64,000 bases of DNA, from NCBI GenBank assembly GCA_021787665.1, contig JAJYLN010000007.1:10135-74134 (forward strand), written 5' to 3'. A program made the position numbers and the translations under genes. Each line of letters begins with the position of its first letter. Within the stretch, counting starts at the first letter, position 1. The stretch is from a bacterium. GTDB taxonomy: Bacteria > JAMCPX01. Positions 1,963 to 64,000 of this stretch are shown here, piece by piece. The notes beneath the pieces are model-generated. The model did no database searches and was not told where the DNA came from. It saw nothing but the letters and a program-made list of their open reading frames with translations.

Positions 1963-2159
1963 CGTCAGCCTCCTCAAAAGTCCAAGTGAGCTTAGCACAC
2001 CATGAGAGCCGCGGTAAAGAGGCACAGGCCACCCACAGGGTATCGTCTTTATCACGGTGCCATTTTTGCCATATGTTCTCCTAAAAATGGATATTAAACA
2101 TCAATATTAGGCCTAATTTTGACACTTTACTTTCATATTTATGGATATAGGGTACTTGT

Positions 2160-3331: not shown

Positions 3332-3470
3332 GGAAAGAAATAAAATAATCAAATCCGGAGAAGATTAATGATGCTATTTGGAATGGATAGAACATTACAA
3401 AAGACGTTTAAAAGAATAGGACGGATGCTGGATCAATTATCAAGAAGAAAGATTTGACTCCTTTTTTCAT

Positions 3471-4955: not shown

Positions 4956-6454
4956 CAGTGCCCCACCATCATCAGCAGCTTCGAGAGCGAGGCGCCGACG
5001 AGGTTAAAGAAAGGCATCGGGTAGACGCCGAGGAATAGGGCGATCAGCACGAGCGGCACGAGGGTAAACAGCTCCCGGCCGTTTATCCGTGCGATGCCAC
5101 GGTACTTCTCGTTCGGCGGACCAAGGAACACCCTCTGGTACGCCCAGAGGAAATAGCCGGCCGTGAATATGACGCCCGTCGCAGAGACGATCACGATCAC
5201 CGGGTAGACCTTGAACGTACCGAGAAACACCAGCACTTCCCCGATAAACCCGCTCAGTCCGGGTAGCCCGAGCGATCCCATGAAGGCGAGGCTCGTGATG
5301 CCGGCGTACACGGGCATGTACGTGGCGATGCCCCCGAACCCGTTCAGGTCCCTGTGGTGTGCCCTATCGTAGATCACGCCCACCAGCAGGAAGAGCATCC
5401 CGGTGATGATGCCGTGGTTGAACATCTGCATGAGCGCACCGTTGAAGCCTATGAAGGTCATGGAGGCAAGGCCGAGTATCACGAAGCCCATGTGGCTCAC
5501 CGAGGAATAGGCAATCATCTTCTTGAAGTCCGTCTGTGCCATAGCAACGAGGGCGCCGTACACGATGTTGATGAGTCCGAGGATGGCAAGGCCGATGGCC
5601 GTATAGGCTGCCATGTCCGGGAGCAGCGGGTAACTGATCCTCATGAGACCGTAGGCACCCATCTTCAGCAACACCCCCGCGAGGATGACGCTGATGGCCG
5701 TCGGTGCCTCTACGTGGGCGTCAGGCAACCACGTGTGGAACGGGAACACCGGCACTTTGATGGCGAAGCCTATGAACAGCGCCACGTACATCGCGAGCCT
5801 CACCCAGAACTGCTTTATGAACATGCCCTGGTTCGCCTGGTTCATGAGCGTCACGATATTGAAGGTGTGGCTACCGGTCGCCGGGTCCGTGCTGTTGAAG
5901 TAGAAGGTGAGGATAACCACGAGCATAAGCACGCTGCCAGCGAGGGTGTACAGGAAGAACTTTATGGCCGCATACTCCCTTCTCGGGCCGCCCCATATGC
6001 CGATGAGAAAGTACATGGGAAAGAGCATCAGCTCCCAGAATATATAGAATAGAAAGAAGTCCAGGGCCATGAATACACCGAACATAGCCGTCACGAGCAA
6101 AAGGTACAGCGAGAAATAGGCCTTGTGCGCCTTGTTGATGTTCCACGACGCGAATACCGACAGGAAGCTCAGCAATCCGGTCAGGACAATCATGGGGGTG
6201 CTGATACCGTCCGCCCCGAGATAGTACTGTATATTGAACGCCGTTATCCACGGGTATTTCTCCACGAACTGAAAGCCGGCGGATGACGCGTCCATCGTAC
6301 CATACAGGTAGAAGGACAGGACCATGGGGATAAAGGTGAACACGGCCGCTGTCCATCTGATCCATGTCACCCTTTCCCGCGGCATCAGCAGGATCAGGAC
6401 GAACCCGATCATCGGTGTAAAGACTATCAAGCTCAACAAATAATTAGACAGCAT
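4955..6454 (-). CDS. nuoM: NADH-quinone oxidoreductase subunit M
   Basis: 499 aa antiporter-like subunit, positioned between nuoL and nuoN. Confidence 0.9.
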   Translation of the reverse strand: MLSNYLLSLIVFTPMIGFVLILLMPRERVTWIRWTAAVFTFIPMVLSFYLYGTMDASSAGFQFVEKYPWITAFNIQYYLGADGISTPMIVLTGLLSFLSVFASWNINKAHKAYFSLYLLLVTAMFGVFMALDFFLFYIFWELMLFPMYFLIGIWGGPRREYAAIKFFLYTLAGSVLMLVVILTFYFNSTDPATGSHTFNIVTLMNQANQGMFIKQFWVRLAMYVALFIGFAIKVPVFPFHTWLPDAHVEAPTAISVILAGVLLKMGAYGLMRISYPLLPDMAAYTAIGLAILGLINIVYGALVAMAQTDFKKMIAYSSVSHMGFVILGLASMTFIGFNGALMQMFNHGIITGMLFLLVGVIYDRAHHRDLNGFGGIATYMPVYAGITSLAFMGSLGLPGLSGFIGEVLVFLGTFKVYPVIVIVSATGVIFTAGYFLWAYQRVFLGPPNEKYRGIARINGRELFTLVPLVLIALFLGVYPMPFFNLVGASLSKLLMMVGH

Positions 6455-6463
6455 CTCTTCCTC

Positions 6464-8470
6464 CTATAATAGAACAAGCGAGAGTAGTATGGCCATACCT
6501 ATGACAGCGACGATAAGATAGTTCTGCACGAGGCCGTTCTGGAGCTTCCGCAGCACTGCACCGGCAGAAACGATACCGTCTCCAACCGCGTTCACCGCGC
6601 CGTCGACGACTACCCTGTCGAACGCGCCCTCAAAGTCCGCGAGCCTCCTGCCGAGCCGTGCCGTGCCGTTCACGGTACCATCTATGATGCGCGCATCGAA
6701 CACCCCCAGCAGGTCCTTGAGCCCCATGAGGCCACCCACGATATACTTCTGGTAGAACTCGTCCACGTAATACTTGTTCAGCAGCCACCGGTAGGCAGTG
6801 TTGTACTTCTCTGCCATTATGGCGGGCAACTCCGTCCTCACCCCGTACAAATAGTACGCGAAACCGATACCGGAGAAGGCGGCAAGCACGGAAACACCCA
6901 TGAGCGTCCACTCGAGCGATACCGAGCCCTCCGGCAGCCTCACCCCTGACGCAAACACCGGTGCCAGGAACTGTGCAAACACGTTGTGCACGCCAAAAAT
7001 CGCCGGCATACCGATATAGCCGCCGATCGCGGACAGGATGGCGAGTATGATGAGCGGTATCGTCATCGTCTTCGGAGATTCGTGCACGTGCTCCGCAGTA
7101 TGGTGGTCCATCCTGGGATTGCCGTAGAAAGTCAGTATCACGAGCCTCGTCATGTAGAACGCGGTGAGCACAGCCGCCACGACGCCGAGCAGCCATACGA
7201 ACGTGCCACCGTACGGGCTGATGTAGGCATGGTACAGGATGTCGTCCTTGCTGAAGAACCCCGCGAAACCGGGAACACCCATGATAGCGAGACTGGCTAT
7301 GACGAAGGTCGTGGTGGTGATGGGCATCTTGCTGGACAGCCCCCCCATCTTCCGTATGTCCTGCTCTCCGGACATCGCATGGATGACACTGCCGGAGCCC
7401 AGAAACAGGAGTGCCTTGAAAAAGGCGTGCGTCATGAGGTGAAATATGCCGGCACCAAACGCACCCACACCCACCCCGATGAACATGTACCCGAGCTGGC
7501 TGACCGTGGAGTATGCGAGTACCTTTTTTATGTCGTTCTGCACGAGCCCGATGGTGGCCGCGAAAAAGGCGGTCAGTGCACCGACGATGGCTATCACCCG
7601 AAGCGCGTCCGGCGCCAGGGCATACAGGAAGTTCATCCGCGCTACCATGTAGACGCCTGCGGTAACCATCGTGGCAGCATGGATAAGGGCGCTGACCGGT
7701 GTCGGGCCGGCCATGGCGTCCGGCAGCCACACGTAGAGGGGTATCTGTGCAGACTTCCCGGTAGCACCGACGAAGAGCATGATCCCGACTGCCGTCAGTA
7801 TCGCGGGAGAGACGAGACCTATGTTGGACTTTATCACGCCGAAGTCGAGCGACCATGTCCCGGTCCTGACACCGACCGCCGTGAACAGGAGCATGAAGCC
7901 TACGATAAAGCCGAAGTCGCCGATCCTGTTCACCACGAACGCCTTCATGCCGGCCTTCGCGTTTTCGATCTTCTCGAACCAGAACCCGATTAGAAGATAG
8001 GAGCAAAGCCCCACGCCTTCCCAGCCGACGAACATCAGGAGGATGCTGTTGGAGAGCACGAGCAGGAGCATCGCGAACGCAAACAAGTTCAGGAAGCCAA
8101 AGTACCTCGAATACCGCTTGTCCCCGTGCATATAGCCAACGGAGTAGAGGTGTATGACAGAGCCGACCCCGCTCACGATAAGGGCCATGACCACGGACAG
8201 TGGATCTACGAGGAATGACAGCCCCACCCTGAACCCCTGGAGTCCTATCCATGTATAGACCGTATCGATGAACTGCCGCTGACCTGGCGGCAGGGAAACG
8301 ATGTGCAGGTAAGCGATCACGGACAGGACGAACGAGGTCGCGATCGTGCCGATCGCAATCGTATGCGTGACAGGCCTCGGCAGTCTGCTCCCAATCAGGA
8401 GGTTTACCATTGCGCCGGTCAATGGCAGCAGGGGAATCAACCAAATACAATGCTCGATGCATGGATACAT
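6464..8470 (-). CDS. nuoL: NADH-quinone oxidoreductase subunit L
   Basis: 668 aa, the largest antiporter-like subunit with a long C-terminal extension. Position is conserved. Confidence 0.9.
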   Translation of the reverse strand: MYPCIEHCIWLIPLLPLTGAMVNLLIGSRLPRPVTHTIAIGTIATSFVLSVIAYLHIVSLPPGQRQFIDTVYTWIGLQGFRVGLSFLVDPLSVVMALIVSGVGSVIHLYSVGYMHGDKRYSRYFGFLNLFAFAMLLLVLSNSILLMFVGWEGVGLCSYLLIGFWFEKIENAKAGMKAFVVNRIGDFGFIVGFMLLFTAVGVRTGTWSLDFGVIKSNIGLVSPAILTAVGIMLFVGATGKSAQIPLYVWLPDAMAGPTPVSALIHAATMVTAGVYMVARMNFLYALAPDALRVIAIVGALTAFFAATIGLVQNDIKKVLAYSTVSQLGYMFIGVGVGAFGAGIFHLMTHAFFKALLFLGSGSVIHAMSGEQDIRKMGGLSSKMPITTTTFVIASLAIMGVPGFAGFFSKDDILYHAYISPYGGTFVWLLGVVAAVLTAFYMTRLVILTFYGNPRMDHHTAEHVHESPKTMTIPLIILAILSAIGGYIGMPAIFGVHNVFAQFLAPVFASGVRLPEGSVSLEWTLMGVSVLAAFSGIGFAYYLYGVRTELPAIMAEKYNTAYRWLLNKYYVDEFYQKYIVGGLMGLKDLLGVFDARIIDGTVNGTARLGRRLADFEGAFDRVVVDGAVNAVGDGIVSAGAVLRKLQNGLVQNYLIVAVIGMAILLSLVLL

Positions 8471-30085: not shown

Positions 30086-33000
30086 TTGATTCATTTATTA
30101 AATACAACCATGAAATTTAATAAATCGTACAGAACATGCGACATCTATCATGGCGTCTATAAAATCAGTAAGCCCGAGGTGGGCGACGTAGTCATGAGGA
30201 GACGACTCTTCCGAATACTGGATAGCTTCAGGTCAAAGCCCGTCATCTGGCTGTCCGGCGTGCCGGGTGCCGGCAAGACGATACTCGCGGTCAGCTACTT
30301 GAACAGCCGCAAAATTCCGTACCTGTACTATCGCATGGAGGGGAGCGACACGGACCTTGCCACGTTCTTCTATTATCTGGGTATGGCGCTGGGGAATGCC
30401 CGATCCGGCAAGACACCTTTTGGACGATATAGCGGAACACGCGCCGGACAACTCGCCAGTCTGCCGCTCCTCACGCCCGAATACCGACTGGACGTCCCTG
30501 CATTCACCCGGTGGTTCTTTAACGAGTTCTACGGCATGATAGGGCACGAGAAAAGACTGGTTATCGTCTTCGACAATTATCAGGAAGTGCCCGCAGACTC
30601 CATGCTCCACGCCGTGATCGGCGAAGGGCTCTCGATGCTCCCCGAGGACGTGCACGCTGTCATAATAAGCAAAGGCGATCCGCCCCCGGCGTTTACGCCG
30701 CTGCGCATGGGCAACAAGATGGGGTTCGTCACGGACAAAGAGGTCCGGTTCACCCTGCCCGAGACCGTGGGCCTGCTGCACCGCATGGGGATAGTCCGTC
30801 CCGGTACGTCCGGATCGAAACAATTCCACGAGATGGCCGAGGGATGGGCGGCGGGTCTGGTTCTGCTGACGGAGGAATACAGAAGGGTGCCGGCCCAGCA
30901 AAAGCCATCGCTGCCCGACAAGGCGCTCCTATCGGAAAGATTGTTCGGCTACTTTGCGGACCACATCTTCGGCCGGCTGGACAAAGAATTGCAGGACTTT
31001 CTGCTGAGGACGTCTTTTCTGACGAAGGTAACGGCCGCGGCGGCCAGGGAGATGACCGGCGCAAAGCACCCGGAAGACATACTCGGCTATCTTCACCGGA
31101 ACAACTACTTCACGGTCAAGCTCGCGTCCCCGGAGCCCGCATACCACTACCACTCGCTCTTCCGGGAATTCTTGCTGTCACACGCGAGAGCGACTTTTAC
31201 CGAAGACGAGCTCCGCTCCGTCATGGCGCAGGCGGCCCGGCTCCTCGCCCAGTCTGGAGAGTTCGAAGAGGCGGCGAAGCTACTGGCGCGCGCGGGCGCA
31301 TGGCCCGATTTCACAAGTCTCGTCGTTGCCCATGCGCCTTCACTGCTCGCGCAGGGACGCAACCAGGTCCTGATACAATGGTTCAAACAAATGGATCAGA
31401 AGGCGGTTGCAGGAAATCCGTGGCTGCTGTACTGGTACGGTCTTTCGATATTCCCCTTCTCGCTGCCGGAGAGCCGCGCGTACCTCGAAAAGGCCTTTGC
31501 ATTGTTCAAAGAGCAGTCCGATGAAAACGGCATCTACCTGTCCTGGGCGAACGTCGTAAGGACGTACTGTATCGAATGGAACAGCTTTAAGCCGATCGAC
31601 AGCTGGCTCGACACGATAAACGGCTTCCTCGAACGCGTACCGCTGCCCCCGGGTGAGTCGGGGACCTACTTTATCTCGGTTATGCTTCTTGCACTGCTCT
31701 ATCGCAGGCCAAAATACGAAGACATAGCGCCGTGGCTCCTGCGTGCAGAGGAGATCGTGCTGTCCGGCAAAGGCACAGACATGCGTACCAGGATTATGAT
31801 CGGCAGCTACCTGATGCTATATTACTCGTGGACCGGGGATATCTCTAAAATGGAAGTCCTGATGAACACGCTCAGACCGCCGTTCAGGCATTACGACACG
31901 CGGAAGGACACGGCAAGGTCCACCGCAGACGGGCAGGGAACCATAACGCCACTCGATATGATCCAGTGGCAGATCGTCGAGTCTATATATGCATGGCAGA
32001 CGCTCTCCGCGGAAATCTCCTCTGCCATCGAAACGGGCATCGGCATAGCGAATAGCTACGGCCTGCACCTGTGGGACCACATACTGTATTCGCAGGGCGT
32101 ATATTATGCCCTCAGCGTCAACGACATGCCTGCCGCGGGCATGTATTTAGACAAGATGTCGAAGGGGGTAAACGTCAATAGTCTGGTGGACTGCTCGCAT
32201 TTTTATTATCTGAAGAGCTGGTACAGCCACGCGCAGGGCAAGCTGCCCCTGGCGATCGAATATGGAGAGAGCGCCCTGCGGAACGCAGTTCAGGCGGGCG
32301 CTGTCTTCCCGGAGATCCTATGCAGGCTCGGACTTGCACGGGTACAAACTGCGGCCGGCAATTACGGAAAGGCGCGCGAAAACGCCGCGCGTGCGGAAAG
32401 GCTCTCGCGCGACATGCGGTGCATCATGGGACAATGCTATTACCATTTGCTGGAAGCCCAGATCGCGTTCGAGCGGGGCGATGAAGAGCGTGGCATCGAG
32501 TCACTGCGGCAGGGCATGAAGATAGGGAGGGAACAGGGATACATCAACAACTGGCGCTGGATGCACGAACCCATGCTCTTCCTGTGTCTGCGAGCACTCC
32601 GGTACAGCATCGAAGTACCGTATGTGCGCATGCTCATCAAGAGGCGCGGCCTCTTGCCGGACCCCCGCTCACTCGACAGGTACGGCATCGATTCCCTGTC
32701 CGATGTAGAAAACTGGCCGTGGACGCTGGACATACGTACCCTCGGCGGCTTCGAGCTTATCAAAGAGGACGACGACGGCAAGCCTGTCGAGTCCCCTGTC
32801 CAGGGCAAGGTGCAAAAGATGCCGCTCGCCTTGCTCAAGGTGGTGATCGCCTCCGGCGGCACGGATGTACGGGAAGAGTCCGTCGTGGACGCACTTTGGC
32901 CCGAGGCGGAAGGCGATAGGACGCACACCGCCTTCTCCACGACCTTGCAGCGTCTCAGGCAGCTTATGGGCAGCGAGAGATGCATCAGGCTCAAAGAAGG

Positions 33001-33481
33001 CCGATTGTCCCTCGACCCGCTGGAGTGCAGGCTCGACGTATGGGAATTCGACCGCCTTCTCGACAAGGCCGACGCGCTGTGGAAGCACGACAGGGACAAG
33101 GCCGTCGGGCTGATAGACAAGGCCGTCGGGCTTTACCGAGGAGGCTTTTTGCCTGAAGACGTCGGCGCGGGGTGGACTACCTCCATGAGGGAGCGCATGA
33201 GGAGCAAGTTCATTCGCGCCCTCCACAGACTTGGGCATTACTGTGAAGAGCAGGGCGCATACGACAAAGCAGCAGGGGACTACACAAAGGGGCTCGAAGC
33301 GGACGACCTGTCCGAGGAGTTCTACCAGTCCCTCATGTTGTGCTACCATGCGATGGGCAGAGACGCGGAGGCTCTCTCGGTCTACCGCACGTGCCGACGT
33401 ATCCTGCATGACGTTCTGAACATAGCGCCTTCCTCGAAGACCGAGTCCATCTACCGGGACATCAAGAGCGCCCCCCAATAA
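30086..33481 (+). CDS. STAND-type transcriptional regulator: MalT-like NTPase + helical/TPR-like sensor region + C-terminal OmpR-type winged helix and BTAD (inverted SARP architecture)
   Basis: Walker A GVPGAGKT and Walker B VIVFDNY at the N-terminus, then an EGWAAGLVL MalT-like motif. The C-terminal ~260 aa match the SARP wHTH plus BTAD pattern (ALLKVVIASGG...DALWPE...TLQRLRQ...WEFDRLL...LYRGGFLPE...EAL.VYR.CR..L...L...P). Alternative start at 30110 (MKFNKS). Confidence 0.7.
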   Translation: MIHLLNTTMKFNKSYRTCDIYHGVYKISKPEVGDVVMRRRLFRILDSFRSKPVIWLSGVPGAGKTILAVSYLNSRKIPYLYYRMEGSDTDLATFFYYLGMALGNARSGKTPFGRYSGTRAGQLASLPLLTPEYRLDVPAFTRWFFNEFYGMIGHEKRLVIVFDNYQEVPADSMLHAVIGEGLSMLPEDVHAVIISKGDPPPAFTPLRMGNKMGFVTDKEVRFTLPETVGLLHRMGIVRPGTSGSKQFHEMAEGWAAGLVLLTEEYRRVPAQQKPSLPDKALLSERLFGYFADHIFGRLDKELQDFLLRTSFLTKVTAAAAREMTGAKHPEDILGYLHRNNYFTVKLASPEPAYHYHSLFREFLLSHARATFTEDELRSVMAQAARLLAQSGEFEEAAKLLARAGAWPDFTSLVVAHAPSLLAQGRNQVLIQWFKQMDQKAVAGNPWLLYWYGLSIFPFSLPESRAYLEKAFALFKEQSDENGIYLSWANVVRTYCIEWNSFKPIDSWLDTINGFLERVPLPPGESGTYFISVMLLALLYRRPKYEDIAPWLLRAEEIVLSGKGTDMRTRIMIGSYLMLYYSWTGDISKMEVLMNTLRPPFRHYDTRKDTARSTADGQGTITPLDMIQWQIVESIYAWQTLSAEISSAIETGIGIANSYGLHLWDHILYSQGVYYALSVNDMPAAGMYLDKMSKGVNVNSLVDCSHFYYLKSWYSHAQGKLPLAIEYGESALRNAVQAGAVFPEILCRLGLARVQTAAGNYGKARENAARAERLSRDMRCIMGQCYYHLLEAQIAFERGDEERGIESLRQGMKIGREQGYINNWRWMHEPMLFLCLRALRYSIEVPYVRMLIKRRGLLPDPRSLDRYGIDSLSDVENWPWTLDIRTLGGFELIKEDDDGKPVESPVQGKVQKMPLALLKVVIASGGTDVREESVVDALWPEAEGDRTHTAFSTTLQRLRQLMGSERCIRLKEGRLSLDPLECRLDVWEFDRLLDKADALWKHDRDKAVGLIDKAVGLYRGGFLPEDVGAGWTTSMRERMRSKFIRALHRLGHYCEEQGAYDKAAGDYTKGLEADDLSEEFYQSLMLCYHAMGRDAEALSVYRTCRRILHDVLNIAPSSKTESIYRDIKSAPQ

Positions 33482-43923: not shown

Positions 43924-46017
43924 CTATAGCAATTTTGTTATGTCCAAGACCTGCGTAACAAGGCCCTTCATCTTTGCAAGCAGATTCAACCTGTTGGTCC
44001 TTATACCCGCGTCGTCGCTCATCACGAGCACCTTCTCGAAAAAGCTATTTATCGGCCCTACCAGATTTTTGACCAGATCTATATACTTAATATATTCCTT
44101 CTTTGCAAGCGCTAATTGAATTTTGGGCTCAAGCTCCAAGTAACTGTCATATAAGGACTTTTCTGATTGCTCGACCAGCAGGCCTGTATTGACTTCCCCG
44201 GCTGGATGGCTTTTGGATATGTTTATGACCCGCTTGAAGGCAAGAAAGACTGGCTCGAAATCCGGGTTTAAGCCAAAGGACTTATCAGCATTAGCTGAGA
44301 ACACTACATCTTTAAGGAAGTTTATACGCCGGTCGGCCTCAAGAATGTCGTCGGGCTCGGTTGCGATAACCGCGTCGATAAGCTTTCTTATGTTCGTGTA
44401 GCGTTCCGCCAGTATACCTTCGAGCCTTGTATAGAAGAAGCTGAGCAAAGAAGCCTGTAAGGTACCCTTATTATTGATATGGTTATACTGTCCGATACTA
44501 AAATCTATCAATGCCTTTATGTCTAATGTGATCTGTATCTGTGGGCCCGACACAGCGGACAACACTATATTTAAAATACCGATTGCAGCCCGCCGCAGCC
44601 CATAGGGATCCTGTGTGCTCGTCGGGGCCTCCCCTATGCTGAAGAACCCGACAAGCGAGTCGATCTTATCAGCAATATAAACAAGAGAGCCTGGTATTGA
44701 CATTGGCTGGCTATACTGTTCGGCAACTACAAGCGCCGTTGTTTTGTCCGATGGGTCTTTCAGCAATATATAATGGTGCCCAATAAGGCCCTGTAATTCC
44801 GGAAACTCCGAGACGAGCCGCGTAGCAAGATCAGCCTTACAGAGTCGTGCCGCCTGAAGGGTGATTGTTCTGAGGCTTTCATCGAGTTTAATTGTGTCGC
44901 AAAGGTATTTGGAAATCGCTACAATCCGCTCTGTCTTGTCGTAGAGGCTACCAAGCTGCGGGAAAAACACCATGCCCTTCAACAGATCGACATAGGATTC
45001 AAGGGGCTGTTTCATGTCCTGATTATAGTAGAACTCGGCATCCTCGAGCCGTGCGCGTAGCACCCTTTCGTATCCTTTTCTTATAATTTTTTTATCGCCG
45101 TAAGGATTATTACTTATACCAATGAAATAGGGCATCAATTTACCCCTGTCATCTGTAACGGGTATGTATTTCTGCTGGGTTTCCATAACACTCCTGATGA
45201 CCTCTTCCGGCATCTTCATGAACCTTGGGTCAAAGCTCCCCTGTATTGCGGTTGGCGATTCGACAAGGTTTGTAATGGCATTATGCAGATAGTAATCAAT
45301 AACTTCACCCCCCCCTACCTTCCTTGCCAATGTATTCGCCTGTTCCCTTATGTCTCTTATTCTTTCAGCAAACTCCGGCAGGATCTTTTCTCTTTTCATT
45401 GCCTTGCGCCATGAAGCAAGGCCGCTGATCTTTATCTTCCTCCCGCTGCCGGTCCTCAGTCCGTAGGTAAACGACGATGCCTTTACCGTACCTATCGAAA
45501 CCGGGACGACCGTGCCGTCGTACAGTACAATAAGCCATCGTATGGGCCGTATAAAACGTACACTTTCGCTGCCCCATCTCATGGACTTCCTGAACGGAGT
45601 GCCGAGTATCAGGCTTGCGAGTTTTTCTTTTATGAGAGATTTTGTGGATACGCCGGGCTTTTTGATCTCCACCTGAACAAACTCGCCCTTGTCGAGCTTA
45701 ACCATCCGTAGTGTTTTAACATCGACACCTTTTGACCGTGCAAAGCCGATTGCGGCCGGTGTCGGATTGCCGTCTTTATCGAAGGCCGCTTCCCTTCTCG
45801 GACCAGTATAAGTCGCCGTGCTCTGCTCGCCTTTGTCCGAGAGCCTCTCGACGCAGAGGACCAGCCGTCTCGGCGTAAAATAAGTTATTATTTCTGTGAA
45901 GGCTATGTGCTCCGAATCAAACAACTGCTTTATGCTGTTCGACAGGTGCTCTATCGCAGGGCTTATCTCTGCGACAGGTACTTCTTCGACGCCGATCTCG
46001 ATAAACAATTCCGCCAT
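43924..46017 (-). CDS. glyS: Glycine--tRNA ligase beta subunit
   Basis: 697 aa. N-terminus MAELFIEIGVEEVP is typical of GlyS. Immediately downstream of glyQ. Confidence 0.9.
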   Translation of the reverse strand: MAELFIEIGVEEVPVAEISPAIEHLSNSIKQLFDSEHIAFTEIITYFTPRRLVLCVERLSDKGEQSTATYTGPRREAAFDKDGNPTPAAIGFARSKGVDVKTLRMVKLDKGEFVQVEIKKPGVSTKSLIKEKLASLILGTPFRKSMRWGSESVRFIRPIRWLIVLYDGTVVPVSIGTVKASSFTYGLRTGSGRKIKISGLASWRKAMKREKILPEFAERIRDIREQANTLARKVGGGEVIDYYLHNAITNLVESPTAIQGSFDPRFMKMPEEVIRSVMETQQKYIPVTDDRGKLMPYFIGISNNPYGDKKIIRKGYERVLRARLEDAEFYYNQDMKQPLESYVDLLKGMVFFPQLGSLYDKTERIVAISKYLCDTIKLDESLRTITLQAARLCKADLATRLVSEFPELQGLIGHHYILLKDPSDKTTALVVAEQYSQPMSIPGSLVYIADKIDSLVGFFSIGEAPTSTQDPYGLRRAAIGILNIVLSAVSGPQIQITLDIKALIDFSIGQYNHINNKGTLQASLLSFFYTRLEGILAERYTNIRKLIDAVIATEPDDILEADRRINFLKDVVFSANADKSFGLNPDFEPVFLAFKRVINISKSHPAGEVNTGLLVEQSEKSLYDSYLELEPKIQLALAKKEYIKYIDLVKNLVGPINSFFEKVLVMSDDAGIRTNRLNLLAKMKGLVTQVLDITKLL

Positions 46018-57338: not shown

Positions 57339-57884
57339 TTACGACGGTGTTGTTGTTAAATAATATTTTATATCGTAAGCCATGTTATACAGGGAATTCG
57401 AAAGCTGTCCGGAAAAAGACATATTGGAAAAACCGCCATAGGGGTTGTATGAAATGGGCGACGGTTCTTCGAGCCTCCGGTAGAGCAGTTTTTTTGTCCC
57501 TCCGTCATAGAAGCTCATCTCGCACTGAAGCTGGTTCCCGATTAATGACACTTTAGAGAACACTATGACCAAGGTATGAGGAGCCCATGGAATGCGTGCA
57601 TATCTTGAGGCCGCGCCGATAACGTTCCACCCTTTCATATAGCTTCTGGTATATGACTGGAGCGAGTCGATGTTCTGCGTTTTTATTTCATCTAACCATT
57701 CTCCTTTTGTCCCGTAACCGAATTTCATCCAATGTTGCTCTCCGAGATCGAGCCAGCCCACATAAATTTTGTTGAATTTCTGATATTGCTCGCTGACTCG
57801 GACAGGCCCGCACCCAGCCGTCATACTTGTCAAAACCATTCCGATAATCCCAAAGGCCACATACCTGTTAAATCTGCTCTTCAT
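57339..57884 (-). CDS. Hypothetical lipoprotein (low-GC gene), divergent from the ACP operon
   Basis: Lipobox MTAGC after a signal peptide. No recognisable domain. Markedly AT-rich compared with its neighbours. Internal start MKSRFNRY preferred. Confidence 0.5.
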   Translation of the reverse strand: MKSRFNRYVAFGIIGMVLTSMTAGCGPVRVSEQYQKFNKIYVGWLDLGEQHWMKFGYGTKGEWLDEIKTQNIDSLQSYTRSYMKGWNVIGAASRYARIPWAPHTLVIVFSKVSLIGNQLQCEMSFYDGGTKKLLYRRLEEPSPISYNPYGGFSNMSFSGQLSNSLYNMAYDIKYYLTTTPS

Positions 57885-58163
57885 GCTTACCTCCTTTTCT
57901 TGTTGTTTCACATGGTTAAACCCTGTAAACTTATTACATACAATACTATCAGTAACTTATGGTACCCGGTTCTCCGGGCTAAAGAGACCCCCTTCAGGGA
58001 TTACATGCACTATTAGCACAGTGGCTTTATAAGGAAAAGAAAAAAGTTTGAAACCTAAAACAGAGATCAACCGATGAAGCGGTCTCTCCTTTGTGCCACT
58101 TGACAAGGCATGGTATTTTTAATAGAAACTGCTCATACAAGCTTGTAACAATGAGGAGATAGC

Positions 58164-58454
58164 ATGGTATCAAACACCAAAAGCGTGACCGTTCAGGACA
58201 TCGAGAGAAGGGTCAGCGAGATATTTATCAATGAGCTCAAGCTCGAGGATGTGACCCCGGAGACGTTGGACACGGAACTACATCTTATGGAAGAACTGGG
58301 AATAGACAGCATGGACCTCATAACCGTGGTACTGGTACTGAAGGACGAATTCTCCGTCAGCATAGAAGAGGCGGATTACCCCAAACTGACCAATATCCGG
58401 CTCATAGCCGAGTACATCAAGGAGAAAATGGAACATGGAAGAAGTGCGGCCTGA
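58164..58454 (+). CDS. Acyl carrier protein 1
   Basis: 96 aa. LGIDSMDL phosphopantetheine attachment motif (DS*) in a four-helix-sized protein. Confidence 0.8.
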   Translation: MVSNTKSVTVQDIERRVSEIFINELKLEDVTPETLDTELHLMEELGIDSMDLITVVLVLKDEFSVSIEEADYPKLTNIRLIAEYIKEKMEHGRSAA

Positions 58455-58767
58455 AAAAGCCTCAATCGGAAAATCATCGAACGGGAAAGCGTCGATCGGA
58501 TCATCACCAATCGAAAAATTGATCGATGAGCTGAAAAAAAAGGTCCTCGATATCCTCAATATCCAGGACGTGAGTCTCAGTGATATAGACAGCAACGCAC
58601 CGATGGTGGGGAACGAGCTCGGCATAGATTCCATCGACATTCTGGAACTGGTCACCGTCATCGAGCAGGATTATGGCGTGAGGATCGACAACAAAGAGTT
58701 GGGCCGGAAGGTGTTTGCCTCATTTACTTCTCTCGCACAATATATAGCTGACCACAGAACCAGTTGA
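58435..58767 (+). CDS. Acyl carrier protein 2 (tandem ACP) with a short KASIG tandem duplication at the N-terminus
   Basis: LGIDSIDILEL attachment motif. The N-terminus contains the repeat KASIGKSSNG/KASIGSSPIE. Confidence 0.75.
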   Translation: MEEVRPEKASIGKSSNGKASIGSSPIEKLIDELKKKVLDILNIQDVSLSDIDSNAPMVGNELGIDSIDILELVTVIEQDYGVRIDNKELGRKVFASFTSLAQYIADHRTS

Positions 58768-58778
58768 ATGTGCCTGTA

Positions 58779-60968
58779 ATGTCGTCTGAAGGCATTTTCA
58801 TCACGGGCCTCGGCATCATCAGTCCTCTGGGGAGAGGACTCCCTTCGACGATCCATGCGCTAAAAAATCCGGTTTCGGGTATCCACAGCGCCGACCTTTT
58901 CAACGTTGCCGTCGATCAGATCATGCCGGTGGCCGATGTCACGGTACCGTTTCCGACCGAGCCCGGCGTCCCGAGGACGCATGCATTGGCGCTCGTTGCG
59001 GCACGCGATGCGATGGAAGGTCGAAAAGCCCCTCCGGATGCTATCGTTATCGGGGTCACCACCGGGGGCATGCCGAAGAGCGAGCAATTGCTCGGCTCGA
59101 AGATCGTGTCGCCGCAGGAATATGTGTACCATGGGGCCGGGACCGTGGCGACATACCTCGCAGAGCACGTATCGTGTACCGGACCGGCCTTCACCCTATC
59201 GACCGCGTGTTCAAGCGGTACCGCGGCCATCAAGATCGCCCTGGAGATGCTCAGGCGGGGAAAGGCAAAGAGCGTGCTCGTCGGAGGAGCAGATGCGTTG
59301 TGCAGGTTTACCTACTTTGGCTTTTTCTCGCTCCAGCTCATAGACCCCAAGGGCGCACGGCCTCTCGACAGGGACAGAGCCGGCATATCACTCGGCGAAG
59401 GAGCGGCAATGCTCCTGCTCGAGAGTGCACCGACGCCCCCCCAGGGCTCCATCGCTCAGATCCTGGGCGGTGGCATCTCCTGCGATGCGTACCATCCGAC
59501 AGCACCGCATCCGAAAGGAGAAGGTGCCCTGAAGGCCATGCAGGACGCCATAGCAGACGCGGGCATCCGGGCAGTTGATATCGGCTATATAAACCTTCAC
59601 GGCACGGCAACACTGGACAATGACGCGTCCGAAGCAACAGCACTCAGGACATTGTATCTCGACCGTATCCCCTCGGTGTCATCCACCAAAGGGATGACCG
59701 GCCATTCGCTCGGTGCAGCAGGCGCGGTCGAATGCGCGATAAGTGCATTGTCCGTTTCCGAGGAACTGATCCCGGCCAATACCGGGTGCGTGAACCCGGA
59801 CGCTTCACTGGGGCTGCCCGTCGTATTGAAACCGGAAAGCCGTCCTGTGAAGATTGCACTGTCGAACTCCTTCGGCTTCGGCGGCAATAATGCTGCCGTG
59901 GTGATCGGTTCCGTGGACCTACCGGTGCCGGTCCGTCAGAGGACATGCCCCATGAGCCTGCAGGTCACGGGTCTTGCCTGCCTGACCGGCAGCGGTGGCA
60001 CGGATGACTCTTTCCAGAAATTCTCACAGGGCGTTCATGTTACCGGCGTCCTGAGCGATGAGGAGGTCTCAAAGGACCTGCCCCAGCGTCAGGTACGCCG
60101 CCTCAAGAGGACCTCCCGCATGGCACTCGCCCTGGCCACGGCGGCACGCAAGGACGCCGGAGGAAGTGATTGTCCGTCCTCGGTCTTCTTCGGGACAGGA
60201 TGGGGCCCCCTGACCGAGACATACGATTTCCTTACCAAGCTCTTCGGGTCCGATATGAAATTTTCCAGTCCTACGGACTTCATCAATTCCGTGCACAATG
60301 CACCCGCAGGACAGGTCGCCATGGAGCTCAAGGCACACGGCGCCAATATCACGGCAACAGGCGGCGATTATTCCTTCGAGCAGGCCCTGTTTATTGCGAG
60401 CCTCCTGACGTCCGAAAAAGATAATCTGCTCCTCCTCGGCGCGGACGAGATGCATCCGGAACTGTCTCTTCTGTTCGATCCATCGTCGGCAGGCGACACC
60501 ACCCCTTCGGACGGCGGCGGCGCGATTATGGCGGTGGCGACAGACTCCCCGGAAGGTCCTGCGATCACGCCGGTCGCGTACCGGATGGCGCCGGGGAATA
60601 CCGGCTCTGCACCCATGATTGACCCCGGGATCATAAAAGATATCGACAGGCGTTATGGCGCGCTCTTTGTCGGAATCCCCCTTGCATACGAAGTGGCGGC
60701 AAGGGCCCAGGTAAAAAGTTTCCTTACGTACTCCAAGTTCAGCGGGCCTGTAGTCGATTACAGAAAGTACACGGGACAGTATGCTACGTCCGCCGCCGTT
60801 GCGACCGTCCTTGCTGTGAAAGCGATCAAACGGGGATCCCTTCCCGCGATCCTGACCGGTAAACAAGAAGTTTCCCTCAGCGGGAAAGGCATCCTGGTCA
60901 TGGGCTTCGGTCCTTATTGTACTGCTATCGATGTCCGTAACCATAACCGAGGTGTGCATGCCCCCTGA
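58779..60968 (+). CDS. Didomain beta-ketoacyl synthase: N-terminal KS (Cys-His-His triad) fused to a C-terminal KS-like/chain-length-factor-like domain lacking the nucleophilic Cys
   Basis: N-terminal domain has TACSSG (active Cys), CDAYHPTAP and NLHGTAT (catalytic His residues), and SFGFGGNNAAVV (KS C-terminus). The C-terminal ~340 aa are KS-fold-like, with ATGGDY at the position equivalent to the Cys. The ATG at 58779 overlaps the ACP2 stop. The ORF-track start is TTG 58764. Confidence 0.75.
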   Translation: MSSEGIFITGLGIISPLGRGLPSTIHALKNPVSGIHSADLFNVAVDQIMPVADVTVPFPTEPGVPRTHALALVAARDAMEGRKAPPDAIVIGVTTGGMPKSEQLLGSKIVSPQEYVYHGAGTVATYLAEHVSCTGPAFTLSTACSSGTAAIKIALEMLRRGKAKSVLVGGADALCRFTYFGFFSLQLIDPKGARPLDRDRAGISLGEGAAMLLLESAPTPPQGSIAQILGGGISCDAYHPTAPHPKGEGALKAMQDAIADAGIRAVDIGYINLHGTATLDNDASEATALRTLYLDRIPSVSSTKGMTGHSLGAAGAVECAISALSVSEELIPANTGCVNPDASLGLPVVLKPESRPVKIALSNSFGFGGNNAAVVIGSVDLPVPVRQRTCPMSLQVTGLACLTGSGGTDDSFQKFSQGVHVTGVLSDEEVSKDLPQRQVRRLKRTSRMALALATAARKDAGGSDCPSSVFFGTGWGPLTETYDFLTKLFGSDMKFSSPTDFINSVHNAPAGQVAMELKAHGANITATGGDYSFEQALFIASLLTSEKDNLLLLGADEMHPELSLLFDPSSAGDTTPSDGGGAIMAVATDSPEGPAITPVAYRMAPGNTGSAPMIDPGIIKDIDRRYGALFVGIPLAYEVAARAQVKSFLTYSKFSGPVVDYRKYTGQYATSAAVATVLAVKAIKRGSLPAILTGKQEVSLSGKGILVMGFGPYCTAIDVRNHNRGVHAP

Positions 60969-62433
60969 AGATCCTATAGTCATTATAGGTTCCGGTATCG
61001 GCGGCCTGACCGCTGCTATCATCCTCGCAAAGCTGGGCCATCGTGTGACTGTTGTGGAAAAGAACAAGCTGCCCGGCGGCCTGATGAGGAGCTATACCAG
61101 AAAGGGGATCGAATGCGAAGTAGGGATCCACTACATGGGCGCCCTAGACAAGGGTCAGCCTTTGCGCCAGATCTTCGACTTTATCGGGGTATCCGATCGT
61201 ATACCCCTCACGCGCATGGGCGAAGACGGGGTCGTCGATAAATACATCCTGCCCGGGATGGAGTTCGATTTCCCCGCGAGCATCGATCGATACGGAGAGA
61301 ACCTCCGTGAGGCCTTTCCGGATGAGGGCCGTCAAATAGCCGCAATTATCGCTGTTCTTCACGATGCGATCGGCCGGTTCGACAGCATGTCTATATTTTT
61401 GAAGGGGGAAACAAATTTCGACTTTGCCCGGGAACTGCGGCCCGCGGGCGATTATTTCAATGAACTGGGATGCTCCCTGGGGCTGCGCAGCATCCTGAGT
61501 GTTCCCCTGTCATTGATCGGCGTAGGACCCGATGAATGCCCCGTATATCTATGGAGTTCCTCGGTCTCTTCCTATCTGATGTCCTCGTGGAGGCTGACAC
61601 GCGGGGGCGCACATATGGCGGATACCTTCGCAGAGAGGCTGCGTGAGCTCGGTGGAGAAATCATCTGCAATGACGGGGTATCGAAGATCCTCGTACAGAA
61701 CCGCGCTGTCCGTGGCGTAGCCTTGAAGTCCGGAAGGGAGCTTGTCTCTCCCACGATCATATCGGCCATCCATCCAAAGCTGATGCTCGGTCTGCTATCC
61801 GACGATTCTTATAAGCCTTCCTTTAAAAACAGGATCCTATCTCTCCAGGAAACGCCCGGGATTTTCGCAACCCATGTAGCGGTCCCCGAAGATGAGCTTC
61901 CTTTAAGGCCGTACAATATCTTCATCCTGAACGAGGCCGCGGACAAGTACGAGGTAGTGACATTTCTTAACATGAAGAAATCACCCGAACCCGGCTGGAA
62001 CACACTGTCCATCCTGGGAGGGAGCCCGTACGAGCAATGGCGCACATGGGAGCACACGACGAGAGGGCAGCGACCCCGTGAATACAAAGAGGCGAAGGCC
62101 CGCGAGGCCGCTGTTCTCTTTGATAGGGCCCTAAAGCTTTTCGGGCCCCTCCACCGGGCACGGGTCGTAGACTCCTTTACGCCCCTGTCGTTTGTAGACT
62201 GGATGGGGAGTCCGGAAGGTGGCGCCTATGGCGTACGCCGATCGACGACACAGAAGTTCAAGACCGCTGCACTGCACCGTACGCCGCTAACAGGGCTGCA
62301 TGCAGTCGGGCAGAGCGTCTTCGCCCCGGGCATACTGGGTACGGCGCTGGGGACCCTGCGGGTACTCGCCCCTCTGGTGGGATATGAAACGCTCCGTCAG
62401 AAATTTATTGACTCAGGTATAGAAGGAATTTAA
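60958..62433 (+). CDS. FAD-dependent oxidoreductase, phytoene desaturase (CrtI)/amine-oxidase-like family
   Basis: N-terminal dinucleotide-binding motif IVIIGSGIGGLTAAIILAKLGHRVTVVEKN...GG. ~490 aa. Start overlaps the KS stop by 11 nt. Confidence 0.7.
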   Translation: MPPEDPIVIIGSGIGGLTAAIILAKLGHRVTVVEKNKLPGGLMRSYTRKGIECEVGIHYMGALDKGQPLRQIFDFIGVSDRIPLTRMGEDGVVDKYILPGMEFDFPASIDRYGENLREAFPDEGRQIAAIIAVLHDAIGRFDSMSIFLKGETNFDFARELRPAGDYFNELGCSLGLRSILSVPLSLIGVGPDECPVYLWSSSVSSYLMSSWRLTRGGAHMADTFAERLRELGGEIICNDGVSKILVQNRAVRGVALKSGRELVSPTIISAIHPKLMLGLLSDDSYKPSFKNRILSLQETPGIFATHVAVPEDELPLRPYNIFILNEAADKYEVVTFLNMKKSPEPGWNTLSILGGSPYEQWRTWEHTTRGQRPREYKEAKAREAAVLFDRALKLFGPLHRARVVDSFTPLSFVDWMGSPEGGAYGVRRSTTQKFKTAALHRTPLTGLHAVGQSVFAPGILGTALGTLRVLAPLVGYETLRQKFIDSGIEGI

Positions 62434-62450
62434 AAGATGAAAGGATTGTC

Positions 62451-64000
62451 ATGACGAAGAAACATACACGAAACACGTCGTCACAAAAGCCGGTTGTCAT
62501 AGGAGAAGGCGATCTTACGCCGGCGCAGGTCGTCGCCATCGCCCGTGGCAAGGAGAGGGTACGCATCAGCACGAACAAGGACTTTACCGGCAGGATGAAG
62601 CGGTCGCAAAAGATACTCCAGCACGCGCTCGACGCCGGCGAGCCGGTTTATGGAGTAACCACCGGGTACGGAGCTGCGTGTGGCAATAGGATCCAGAAGC
62701 ATAAAACCGAGGAACTCGGGAGCAACCTCATCAAGTACCACGGATGCGGCACCGGTGAGCCGTTGGGCGTAGAAGAGGTGCGTGCGTCCCTGATGTGCAG
62801 GCTCGCGTGCTTCGCACAGGGACATTCCGGGGTGTCCGTCAACCTGCTGCAAGCCCTTGCGGACTTCCTCAACAAAGGCATAACACCGGTCGTACCTTCC
62901 CTCGGCTCTGTCGGCGCATCCGGGGACCTCACCCCTATGTCATACATCGCCGCCTGCCTGTCCGGAGACAGGGAGGTCCTGTATAAAGGACGGCGAATGC
63001 ACTCCCGGAACGCTCTGTCTCTGGCAGGCCTGTCTCCCTACCGCTTTCTTCCGAAAGAGCCGCTCGGCATGATGAATGGAACTTCCGTTATGACCGGGAT
63101 CGCGGCCCTTGTTCTGGACAAAAGTAGGGTCATAGCAGATGCTGCACTCGCAGCTACGGCACTCTCGCTCCATGCCATCATAGGACACGAGCGGCACTTC
63201 CATTCGGCGGTGGTCAACTCGAAGCCCCATCCCGGACAGCACAGCACCGGCGAGCGGCTGCGGGGCCTTCTGGCCTGCGTGGACTGTCCTCCGGAATCCG
63301 GCAGGGAAAATGATCTGCAAGACCCTTATTCCACACGCTGCGCCCCGCAGATCCTCGGCGTCGTGTACGATGCCTTCGAATGGATCGGGCAATGGGTCCA
63401 CCGGGAGATAAACAGCTCCAACGACAATCCGCTGTCCGACGGCGACAACGAAGAGGTCTTCATGGGCGGCAATTTTTACGGCGGTCACATAGCATACGCC
63501 ATGGACGCCCTGAAGAGCGCGCTGGCATCGGTCGCAGACATGGCTGACCGACAGATGGCCCTGCTGGTCGATCCCCGGTACAACCGGGGTCTCCCGGCAA
63601 ACCTCGTGAAGGTGAAGGGTGACAAACAGCCCCTGCACCACGGGTTCAAGGGTATGCAGATCACCGCCTCGGCACTTACGGCAGAAGCCCTGAAGAACAC
63701 CATGCCCGCGGCATCGTTCTCCAGATCAACCGAGTCCCATAACCAGGACAAGGTGAGCATGGGCACGATCGCCGCACGGGACGCTTCGCGGCAATGCGAC
63801 CTCGTCAGCAGGGCTGTGGCCATCCATCTCATGGCAGCGGTCCAGGCATGCGAGCTGCGCGGTAATCTGGACAGGAGACCTGCACTGGCGTCCCTGGTAA
63901 AAGAGGTCAGAAAGGTGGTAAAGGAGACGGTCTTCGACCGCCCCATGGACAGGGACATCGAGGCCCTCGTAGGCGCGCTGCCGGACGTGGTACGATCCGT
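62451..64000 (+). CDS. Aromatic amino acid ammonia-lyase (HAL/PAL/TAL family, MIO cofactor), 3'-truncated by window end
   Basis: Not in the ORF track because there is no stop before the window end. Manual translation from ATG 62451 gives ...GVTTGYGA...GSVGASGDLTPMSYIAA... with the Ala-Ser-Gly MIO-forming triad, and continues ...NDNPL...FYGGHIAYAMD... for 516 aa. Confidence 0.8.
   Translation, partial: MTKKHTRNTSSQKPVVIGEGDLTPAQVVAIARGKERVRISTNKDFTGRMKRSQKILQHALDAGEPVYGVTTGYGAACGNRIQKHKTEELGSNLIKYHGCGTGEPLGVEEVRASLMCRLACFAQGHSGVSVNLLQALADFLNKGITPVVPSLGSVGASGDLTPMSYIAACLSGDREVLYKGRRMHSRNALSLAGLSPYRFLPKEPLGMMNGTSVMTGIAALVLDKSRVIADAALAATALSLHAIIGHERHFHSAVVNSKPHPGQHSTGERLRGLLACVDCPPESGRENDLQDPYSTRCAPQILGVVYDAFEWIGQWVHREINSSNDNPLSDGDNEEVFMGGNFYGGHIAYAMDALKSALASVADMADRQMALLVDPRYNRGLPANLVKVKGDKQPLHHGFKGMQITASALTAEALKNTMPAASFSRSTESHNQDKVSMGTIAARDASRQCDLVSRAVAIHLMAAVQACELRGNLDRRPALASLVKEVRKVVKETVFDRPMDRDIEALVGALPDVVRS

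Follow-up and report, generated by a model that had tools for sequence, protein, structure and literature searches.

A seven-gene operon with a fused ketosynthase-chain-length factor, an ammonia-lyase and a predicted single-chain fatty-acid kinase: a possible aryl polyene-like lipid pathway of anaerobic bacteria

Aryl polyene (APE) clusters have been described in Escherichia coli CFT073 (apeA-R), Xenorhabdus doucetiae and Acinetobacter baumannii, and their shared features include two dedicated ACPs (acyl carrier proteins), namely ApeE and ApeF, and an ApeO/ApeC-type ketosynthase (KS) with a short, Cys-less chain-length factor (CLF). The flexirubin clusters of Bacteroidota (FlxA, FlxB, LolA2) carry a 4-methylideneimidazole-5-one (MIO) ammonia-lyase inside an APE-type cluster. 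A third relevant group is the anammox 'Cluster I' (kustE3603-3608) together with syntenic clusters of Desulfotalea, Geobacter and Pelobacter, in which the neighbours of a phytoene dehydrogenase homologue are an ACP, a FabF pair of the KS/CLF type and a B12-dependent radical S-adenosylmethionine (radical-SAM) gene (Rattray 2009, PMC2649909; Granatino et al. 2026 preprint, bioRxiv 10.64898/2026.05.19.726425). Here we describe an operon starting at position 58164 of a 64,000-nucleotide stretch of bacterial DNA (contig JAJYLN010000007.1 of assembly GCA_021787665.1, positions 10,135 to 74,134; referred to as the window). It represents nothing categorically new, being of the known APE type in an anaerobe-lineage version, and this version combines a fused ApeO~ApeC-like KS-CLF, a Cluster-I-style flavoenzyme, a distinct clade of MIO lyase, and a thioesterase coupled to a predicted single-chain fatty-acid kinase. 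That the operon forms the core of an APE-like type II polyketide synthase/fatty acid synthase (PKS/FAS) lipid pathway, in a variant found mainly in Desulfobacterota-like anaerobes related to sulfate reducers, is our favoured reading, to which we would give an even chance.

The part of the operon that lies in the window (58164-64000) consists of five consecutive, coupled genes on the + strand, seen both in the open reading frame (ORF) listing and by direct reading of the sequence. With the putative promoter, the features are:

58100..58163, + strand, putative promoter and ribosome-binding site (direct reading of the sequence)
58164..58454, + strand, ACP1 (96 aa, PF00550)
58435..58767, + strand, ACP2 (110 aa, PF00550 and NCBIfam PRK09184)
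58779..60968 (alternative TTG start at 58764), + strand, single-chain KS-CLF (729 aa, PF00109 + PF02801 + PF13723)
60958..62433, + strand, FAD-dependent oxidoreductase (491 aa, PF13450 + PF01593)
62451..64000 (window end), + strand, MIO lyase (codons 1-516 of 517, PF00221)

A preliminary description, made from the sequence alone, had listed the same five coupled genes, and every one of these ORFs is backed by Pfam domains (PF00550 twice; PF00109, PF02801 and PF13723; PF01593/PF13450; PF00221 at 523 bits). The overlap of ACP2 with ACP1 (20 nt), that of the flavoenzyme start with the KS-CLF stop (11 nt) and the 17-nt gap before the lyase were all seen again. It had also placed the ACP2 stop over the KS start; by the gene calls in public records and by the homologue consensus MxxxRVFITG, the ATG at 58779 is the better-supported start, so that the KS begins 11 nt past the ACP2 stop and the two do not overlap. 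The lyase is all but complete at the window edge, with 516 of its 517 codons inside. The window holds the first five genes of a seven-gene operon, and a 4HBT-family thioesterase and a FakA-FakB fusion protein complete it on the same contig. We place the start of the operon at 58164 because the genes upstream of it are unrelated housekeeping genes (TatC, dehydroquinase, SIS, epimerase, PMT_2, PTS enzyme I). The region 58100..58163 contains a perfect TTGACA (58100-58105), a weak -10 element TAGAAA (58123-58128) at a spacing of 17 nt, and a Shine-Dalgarno sequence GAGGAG (58153-58158) ahead of ACP1. This weakly suggests that the operon promoter may be located here; a consensus scan called no + strand promoter in this region.

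In comparison with APE clusters, the operon is alike in its two dedicated ACPs, each with a DS(M/I) serine, in its ApeO/ApeC-type KS with a short Cys-less CLF, and in an ApeK-like 4HBT thioesterase, which lies on the contig 3' of the window. The window itself carries part of the APE gene set, and further parts are found in close relatives: an ApeR-like KS, a ketoreductase (KR), ApeI/ApeP-like dehydratases, an acyltransferase of the lysophospholipid acyltransferase (LPLAT) type, a LolA-like protein with a lipoprotein beside it, and an MMPL protein. Unlike in APE clusters, KS and CLF are in one chain, the ApeH aryl-acid:ACP ligase, the ApeB methyltransferase and ApeG are missing, and a CrtISO/RetSat-like flavoenzyme, a MIO lyase and a FakA-FakB kinase are added, as well as a B12 radical-SAM protein in relatives. 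The hosts are also different, being mostly uncultured Desulfobacterota and some Spirochaetota, while the window's own clade is unclassified. With flexirubin clusters the operon shares a MIO lyase encoded within an APE-type cluster, suggesting an amino acid as the source of an aryl-acrylate starter; in addition, FlxB and LolA2 are the best-scoring models, or nearly so, for the KR and LolA of relatives. However, the lyase differs from the flexirubin enzyme in its score (314 bits against a FlxA cutoff of 700) and in its selectivity pair ([Y/F]-H instead of the His-Leu of canonical tyrosine ammonia-lyases, TALs), 4-coumarate-CoA ligase is absent, and no dialkylresorcinol genes were seen. What the operon shares with 'Cluster I' is the parts list: dedicated ACP(s), a FabF pair of the KS/CLF type, a homologue of phytoene dehydrogenase and, next to these in relatives of the window, a B12 radical-SAM gene. 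In contrast to 'Cluster I', KS and CLF are fused here, the lyase and the thioesterase-kinase module are additional, and the radical-SAM and FabZ-like genes are absent from the window.

The 729-aa KS-CLF is a single polypeptide in which PF00109/PF02801 cover residues 1-383 and PF13723 lies in the C-terminal half. Its KS half (residues 1-383) contains Cys144, His274 and His309, a triad that is invariant in 57 homologues and confined to this half. The CLF half (approximately residues 386-729) has no catalytic Cys and reads ATGGDYSFEQ where the KS has TACSSG. Compared with PDB chain sequences, the KS half matched ApeO of X. doucetiae (6qsp_A, 190.8 bits) and ApeO of A. baumannii (7f28_B, 179.2 bits), with the unlabelled FabF-like heterodimer 9s5h ranking between the two; the top two matches of the CLF half were 9s5h_C and then ApeC (6qsp_B). 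The identities of 6QSP, 7F28 and 7F27 were taken from PMC8358021. By these scores, the two halves are nearest to ApeO and ApeC among the identified solved structures, in keeping with the aryl-polyene character proposed in the preliminary description, which took one fused chain for a pair. The fabF model TIGR03150 gave 268.6 bits on the KS half, far from its cutoff of 493.75. An AlphaFold (AF2) model of the whole protein forms a compact didomain (pLDDT 91.8, pTM 0.94), and its sole full-length fold match was the KS-CLF didomain of PfaC (6riw; TM 0.82 on the query, 16% identity), to our knowledge the only solved single-chain KS-CLF. The model and its match support an intramolecular pseudo-heterodimer. 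PfaC itself belongs to a multidomain megasynthase; the KS-CLF described here is a stand-alone type II component.

The entry that ranks highest for the CLF half and second for the KS half, 9s5h/9s5i, contains two different FabF-like chains (413 and 412 aa). We could not find the identity of 9s5h in the literature. It may be the anammox amxFabF2/amxFabFmut heterodimer of the 2026 preprint.

Both tandem ACPs of the preliminary description were recovered as PP-binding ORFs. ACP1 (PF00550, 32.3 bits) has its phosphopantetheine serine at Ser49 (GIDSM, within LGIDSMDL) and is kept as the first ACP in the related loci L003, L008, L011 and L012 at 81-86% identity. ACP2 (PF00550, 30.9 bits) has the equivalent serine at Ser66 (GIDSI, within LGIDSIDI) and narrowly passed the NCBIfam PRK09184 cutoff (70.6 bits against 70). 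An N-terminal extension of 25 aa in ACP2 (window 58435-58510) contains a repeated KASIG motif, EKASIGKSSNGKASIGSSP, which is unusual in carrier proteins.

The flavoenzyme belongs to the CrtI/CrtD/CrtISO/RetSat-like amine oxidase superfamily ('phytoene dehydrogenase-like'; PF13450, PF01593). The NCBIfam models for CrtD and carotenoid isomerase matched it weakly and far under their cutoffs, and its PDB sequence matches were limited to the N-terminal FAD motif. Homologues in Desulfobacterota co-localise either with KS-CLF genes or with the thioesterase-kinase genes, and a role in double-bond editing may be suggested.

The lyase matches PF00221 (profile positions 1-466) as a full-length domain. 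It contains the ASG triad of MIO enzymes (GSVGASGDLTP), the catalytic Tyr in PVYGV and a Tyr-His selectivity pair in NLIKYHGCGTG. The triad, the catalytic Tyr and the motif HNQDKVSMG are invariant in 40 syntenic orthologues, in which the selectivity pair is Tyr-His in the window and Phe-His in the Syntrophales versions. No curated NCBIfam cutoff was reached: the protein scored 425.9 bits with hutH (TIGR01225; cutoff 539.15) and 314.4 bits with FlxA (NF053541; cutoff 700), and was also under the cutoffs for BagA/FevW, for phenylalanine ammonia-lyase (PAL) and for tyrosine aminomutase (TAM). By the FlxA model the lyase does not qualify as the flexirubin-type enzyme to which the preliminary description had likened it. 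Among solved structures it scored 286 bits with a cyanobacterial PAL (2nyn), 266 with SgTAM, 250 with RsTAL and 211 with the histidine ammonia-lyase (HAL) of P. putida, being approximately equidistant from the first three and farther from the last. These comparisons indicate what appears to be a conserved and distinct clade of MIO enzymes. Canonical TALs have the selectivity pair His-Leu and canonical PALs Phe-Leu, while HALs have Ser-His with NQE, not NQD, further on; in our alignment AvPAL has Phe-Leu and SgTAM has Ser-His. The second selectivity residue of the lyase, His, aligns with His93 of SgTAM, which presumably contacts the phenol hydroxyl of the substrate. Because the conserved His occurs together with NQD, our best guess for the substrate is Tyr.

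To follow the operon past the window we used an identical contig in the ENA assembly ERZ27233565 (L001), found by an exact-protein look-up. Downstream of the lyase are a 141-aa 4HBT-family thioesterase and a 575-aa protein with Dak2, FakA-middle and DegV regions, here called FAK, and the three genes are coupled by 4-nt overlaps. The preliminary description had expected KR, dehydratase, CoA-ligase, thioesterase and export genes beyond 64 kb. Two further operon genes were indeed found, neither of them belonging to primary fatty acid synthesis, while KR, dehydratase, CoA-ligase and export genes do not follow. The FAK gene occupies L001 15645-17372 and the contig ends 423 nt after it. Between FAK and the contig stop lie non-coding DNA and, after it, the C-terminal part of a DDE/rve-type transposase on the minus strand (L001 17480-17795). 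Relatives carry an acyltransferase and an ApeR-like KS at the position of this fragment, so the cluster may have been split, or the assembly interrupted, by an insertion sequence. The transposase fragment, which lies about 3.4-3.8 kb beyond the window end, at the contig stop, ends in ...WIEDYNTVCPHERLGGMSAREYYENWYKIG and its stop codon.

In the thioesterase, the YbgC-type catalytic Asp (Asp21) is invariant in 72 of 73 orthologues. FAK residues 5-286 match the N and middle domains of FakA (7w7h, 7rm7) and residues 296-571 match DegV/FakB proteins. Its invariant residues include DGDTG, RGNSG and Cys216/His253/His255 and, in the DegV domain, Ser356, Arg463 and His560; Cys216/His253/His255 are the counterparts of Cys240/His282/His284, the catalytic residues of S. 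aureus FakA_L (PMC9136124). The DegV domain passed its cutoff (148 bits against 99.7), and the equivalog cutoffs for FakA_VfrB (101 of 975) and FakB1 (44 of 350) were not reached. The predicted structure (pLDDT 87.7, pTM 0.90) superposes on FakB/DegV proteins with a TM of 0.80-0.85 and on FakA_N with 0.77, and in place of the FakA_C docking domain it has the fused DegV domain. From the motifs, the DegV score and the superpositions, FAK is predicted to be a single-chain fatty-acid kinase in which the binding protein takes the place of the FakB-docking FakA_C. It shares with FakA/FakB of Firmicutes the nucleotide-site motifs of FakA_N, the Cys/His/His of FakA_L and the DegV/FakB domain. However, it is one chain, is far under the FakA and FakB1 equivalog cutoffs, and is found in Gram-negative anaerobes within a biosynthetic cluster, beside a thioesterase. 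Our literature searches (DegV with ammonia-lyase and ketosynthase; Fak fusions in Deltaproteobacteria) found no description of such a module.

The fused KS-CLF family is large, with thousands of database proteins matching. The best 120 matches are 695-743 aa long and 48-73% identical, and the named ones are from Desulfobacterota/Deltaproteobacteria and Spirochaetota. The clade at 60-75% identity has the same operon, and in GCA_023487665.1 the operon is found between entirely different flanking genes, which identifies it as a discrete unit. The gene arrangement is not due to chance, since the same order recurs in other genomes in unrelated flanking contexts. A larger cluster surrounds the operon in L008, L009, L010/L015 and L011. 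The order in L008-L011/L015 is B12 radical-SAM, ACP, ACP, KS-CLF, FAD enzyme, lyase (not in L009), 4HBT and FAK, followed by a PlsC-like acyltransferase, a second KS, a small membrane protein, a lipoprotein, LolA and a KR. The B12 radical-SAM gene is directly 5' of the ACPs in L008, L009 and L011; L009 has in addition an MMPL protein, and L015 has ApeI- and ApeP-like dehydratases. The KR was found in L008-L011 and L015, and ApeI/ApeP-like genes in L015 and L005. The second KS (L011) is ApeR-like (PDB 4ewg, 386 bits; AbApeR 7f27, 377 bits), about 100 bits over FabF, the LolA of the relatives has the flexirubin LolA2 as its best NCBIfam match, and their KR scores 314 with FlxB against a cutoff of 340. 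Together, the relatives have a nearly full APE parts list (as in PMC8253772), minus the ApeH ligase.

No AMP-binding gene was found in the window-type clusters L001, L003, L008, L009, L011 and L015, and the CoA ligase suggested in the preliminary description has therefore no counterpart among the clusters of this clade; AMP-binding genes do occur in the Syntrophales versions. The clusters of KS-CLF homologues of about 50% identity are rich in B12 radical-SAM genes and carry in addition ApeP/ApeI-like dehydratases, KR, LolA, several ACPs, PlsY and an AMP-ligase. Two clusters, L005 (Desulfobacteraceae) and L006 (Spirochaetes), carry several B12 radical-SAM genes, 4-5 ACPs, ApeP/ApeI-like genes, PS-DH and PlsY, with a polysaccharide deacetylase and a pair of AMP-ligase and ACP, and have neither lyase nor kinase. 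They look like a second, more elaborate cluster type.

At E<1e-10 the FAK fusion has 5306 matching database proteins, and relatives of it are encoded in at least 589 GTDB species genomes, with members in Syntrophales, Smithellaceae, Desulfobacterales, NaphS2, Desulfosudis oleivorans and some Spirochaetota. Neighbourhoods were counted in the best 80 species loci (L011-L090), with the presence of a gene scored only for loci with 8 kb on both sides. The 4HBT gene is directly 5' of FAK in 68 of 75 species loci and the lyase is directly upstream in 35 of 69. The gene directly 5' of the lyase is a B12 radical-SAM gene in 25 of 33 loci and a flavoenzyme, as in the window, in 3 of 33. A KS is present in 27 of 34 fully flanked loci, a radical-SAM gene in 30 of 34 and an AMP-ligase in 16 of 34. 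In the window's clade an acyltransferase follows FAK, and in L065 (10001-13219) FAK is directly followed by a PlsC-like acyltransferase and then by a PlsY homologue; the clusters of L022 and L005 also include PlsY. Since the acyl donor of PlsY is acyl-phosphate, the order in L065 fits an acyl-phosphate intermediate. The Smithellaceae locus L078 (chromosome OY820932.1; 1-12500), which has the Syntrophales arrangement, carries an acyltransferase, two KS genes, an AMP-binding enzyme, an acyl-CoA dehydrogenase, a B12 radical-SAM gene, the lyase, 4HBT, FAK and GT2, the acyl-CoA dehydrogenase standing where the CrtI-like flavoenzyme would be.

Under our favoured reading, the MIO lyase would deaminate an aromatic amino acid, most likely Tyr, to an aryl-acrylic acid starter, probably p-coumarate by analogy with flexirubin. 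The two dedicated ACPs would carry the starter and the malonyl extender units, and the single-chain ApeO~ApeC-like KS-CLF would elongate the chain. Ketoreduction and dehydration would depend on genes outside the window, represented in relatives by an ApeQ/FlxB-like KR, ApeI/ApeP-like dehydratases and an ApeR-like initiating KS. The CrtISO/RetSat-like flavoenzyme may edit double bonds by desaturation, isomerisation or saturation. The 4HBT thioesterase would then free the finished acid, the FakA-FakB fusion would bind it and phosphorylate it to an acyl-phosphate, and PlsY- or PlsC-type acyltransferases would move the acyl group onto a lipid anchor, the lipid being exported by LolA-like proteins. 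In the model for APE, the thioesterase ApeK releases the acid and acyltransferases attach it afterwards (PMC8253772). This model, the near-invariant coupling of thioesterase and kinase, the adjacent acyltransferase or PlsY and the known Fak chemistry suggest that the pair here probably serves release followed by re-activation as acyl-phosphate for lipid attachment. Gene content, the identities of the domains, the intact catalytic residues, the nearest solved relatives and the conserved synteny are what the data show; the lyase substrate, the aromatic nature of the starter, what the flavoenzyme does, which way the kinase step runs and the nature of the product are put forward here by inference.

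Several points weigh against this reading. In the absence of an ApeH-type or coumarate ligase in the clade, the loading of an aryl acid onto an ACP is unexplained. None of the curated equivalog models, FlxA and BagA among them, accepts the lyase, whose [Y/F]-H pair is unlike that of canonical TAL (HL) or PAL (FL). The close relative L009 has no lyase, nor do about half of the FAK loci, and an aromatic starter is therefore not a requirement. An anammox KS/CLF with the same neighbours self-primes by decarboxylation of malonyl-ACP (2026 preprint, bioRxiv 10.64898/2026.05.19.726425), and no cluster of this type has been linked to a product. Finally, the pathway as seen is incomplete and its completion depends on other parts of the genome, since the window and contig have no KR, dehydratase, ApeR-like KS, acyltransferase, LolA or radical-SAM gene. 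Using proteins of the relatives in tblastn, no KR, LolA, acyltransferase, ApeR-like KS, radical-SAM, ApeI/P, MMPL or PlsY gene of the cluster was found in the 64-kb window, the only match being an unrelated short-chain dehydrogenase/reductase (1126-2055) with 34% identity to the cluster KR. The second, ApeR-type KS is absent from both the window and contig L001, a dedicated KR (ApeQ) and dehydratases (ApeI/ApeP) are absent from the operon, and the acyltransferase, LolA and lipoprotein were seen in relatives only, the 4HBT thioesterase being present on L001.

Perhaps the pathway leads instead to a specialised fatty acid or polyene lipid that is not aromatic and is of the anammox 'Cluster I'/Desulfotalea type. 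In such a pathway the KS-CLF would prime itself through decarboxylation of malonyl-ACP, the phytoene dehydrogenase-like flavoenzyme (with the B12 radical-SAM protein in relatives) would remodel the chain, and the lyase would be accessory, for example in head-group or nitrogen handling. The set of ACP, KS/CLF, phytoene dehydrogenase homologue and B12 radical-SAM protein agrees with kustE3603-3608 and with the synteny in D. psychrophila (PMC2649909; bioRxiv 10.64898/2026.05.19.726425). The top PDB match of the CLF half, 9s5h_C, the loci without a lyase, and the radical-SAM gene so often found directly 5' of the lyase are all in agreement with this. However, the radical-SAM gene is absent from the window, and the ApeR-, FlxB- and LolA2-like genes of the relatives point to an APE/flexirubin logic. 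In addition, the MIO enzymes known to us all act on aryl- or imidazolyl-alanines, and the acrylate products of MIO enzymes are classic polyene starters, as in flexirubin. We consider a non-aromatic product possible and yet rather unlikely. The APE/flexirubin-like pathway of the preliminary description is partly supported, among other things by the ApeR-, FlxB- and LolA2-like genes and the LPLAT of the relatives; the flavoenzyme and the gene order tie the cluster equally to the 'Cluster I'/Desulfotalea type.

A second alternative concerns the kinase, which might activate the starter, an aryl-acryloyl phosphate being passed to the ACP via PlsX or directly, thereby replacing ApeH or a coumarate ligase. 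In Fak systems PlsX is known to turn acyl-phosphate into acyl-ACP (PMC9136124), the lyase, 4HBT and FAK genes are translationally coupled, and the six window-type clusters named above lack an AMP-binding enzyme. The idea is weakened because kinase and AMP-ligase co-occur in many Syntrophales clusters; 16 of 34 fully flanked FAK loci have an AMP-ligase, and about half of the FAK loci lack the lyase. Moreover, the near-invariant partner of FAK is the thioesterase, and an acyltransferase or PlsY often comes after FAK, which fits release and re-activation better, and the DegV proteins characterised to date bind long acyl chains. We regard starter activation by FAK as unlikely.

It is less probable still, in our view, that the MIO enzyme is an aminomutase making a beta-amino acid (e.g. 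beta-tyrosine) for the starter or head group. The N-terminal region does have SgTAM as its best match, at 72 bits compared with 61 for PAL, SgTAM likewise has His as the second selectivity residue, and the Tyr_2_3_mutase model gave 331 bits. Over the whole protein, however, lyases score higher (BagA and hutH at about 426 bits; PAL 2nyn at 286 against 266 for SgTAM), and a ligase or adenylation enzyme for a beta-amino acid is absent. Finally, housekeeping fatty acid synthesis lying by coincidence beside a histidine-degrading HutH, for which the 425.9 bits with TIGR01225 and the FabF matches of the KS half might speak, was rejected on score and gene context as extremely improbable, since both scores are under cutoff (hutH 539, fabF 494), hutU/hutI, fabD/G/Z/I/H and plsX are all missing from the operon, the KS is fused to a Cys-less CLF, and the gene order, with its synteny of lyase and PKS genes, is kept across many species in different flanking contexts. 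The lyase is not a HutH, an identity that would have counted against the preliminary description.

Returning to the APE-like reading, we tentatively propose, while thinking it more doubtful than probable, that thioesterase, single-chain FAK and acyltransferase constitute a new acyl-phosphate route, and that the ApeO~ApeC/phytoene dehydrogenase-like core ties APE to 'Cluster I'. The module may be an unrecognised path by which an ACP-bound polyketide or fatty acid enters membrane lipids via the free acid and the acyl-phosphate. If so, fatty-acid-kinase chemistry would have been recruited into a biosynthetic cluster of Gram-negative anaerobes, and the thioesterase-kinase module would fill the missing re-activation step in the assembly of aryl-polyene lipids. 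The fused core would then offer a tractable non-anammox model for the ladderane-associated 'Cluster I' chemistry. Should the model be right, strict anaerobes would make a Tyr-derived polyene lipid and attach it by a new acyl-phosphate route. The family is large and unstudied, is linked to the ladderane-cluster question and is open to enzymology, and neither the distinct MIO lyase clade nor the coupling of a thioesterase to a single-chain kinase was found discussed in the literature searched.

The remainder of the window is core chromosome, with NuoLMN-like subunits, a ClpB-like protein, LigA, PPDK and GlyQS, and scans for Rfam families, tRNAs and promoters were uninformative about the locus. 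A 190-aa ORF on the minus strand (57339-57911), divergent from the operon, was rejected as a member of the cluster, having no Pfam match and no homologue in any related locus; it encodes a predicted lipoprotein with a signal peptide containing ...TAGC. About 25 kb upstream of the operon, 30086-33481 encodes a 1131-aa protein with a C-terminal BTAD domain (SARP-type transcriptional activator) and TPR repeats. The G+C content dips to 0.48 at 2001-4000 and at 44001-46000, against approximately 0.56 in the rest of the window. The first dip is at the 3' end of a row of NuoL/M/N-like antiporter-subunit genes (3471-8470) and the second spans glyS/glyQ.

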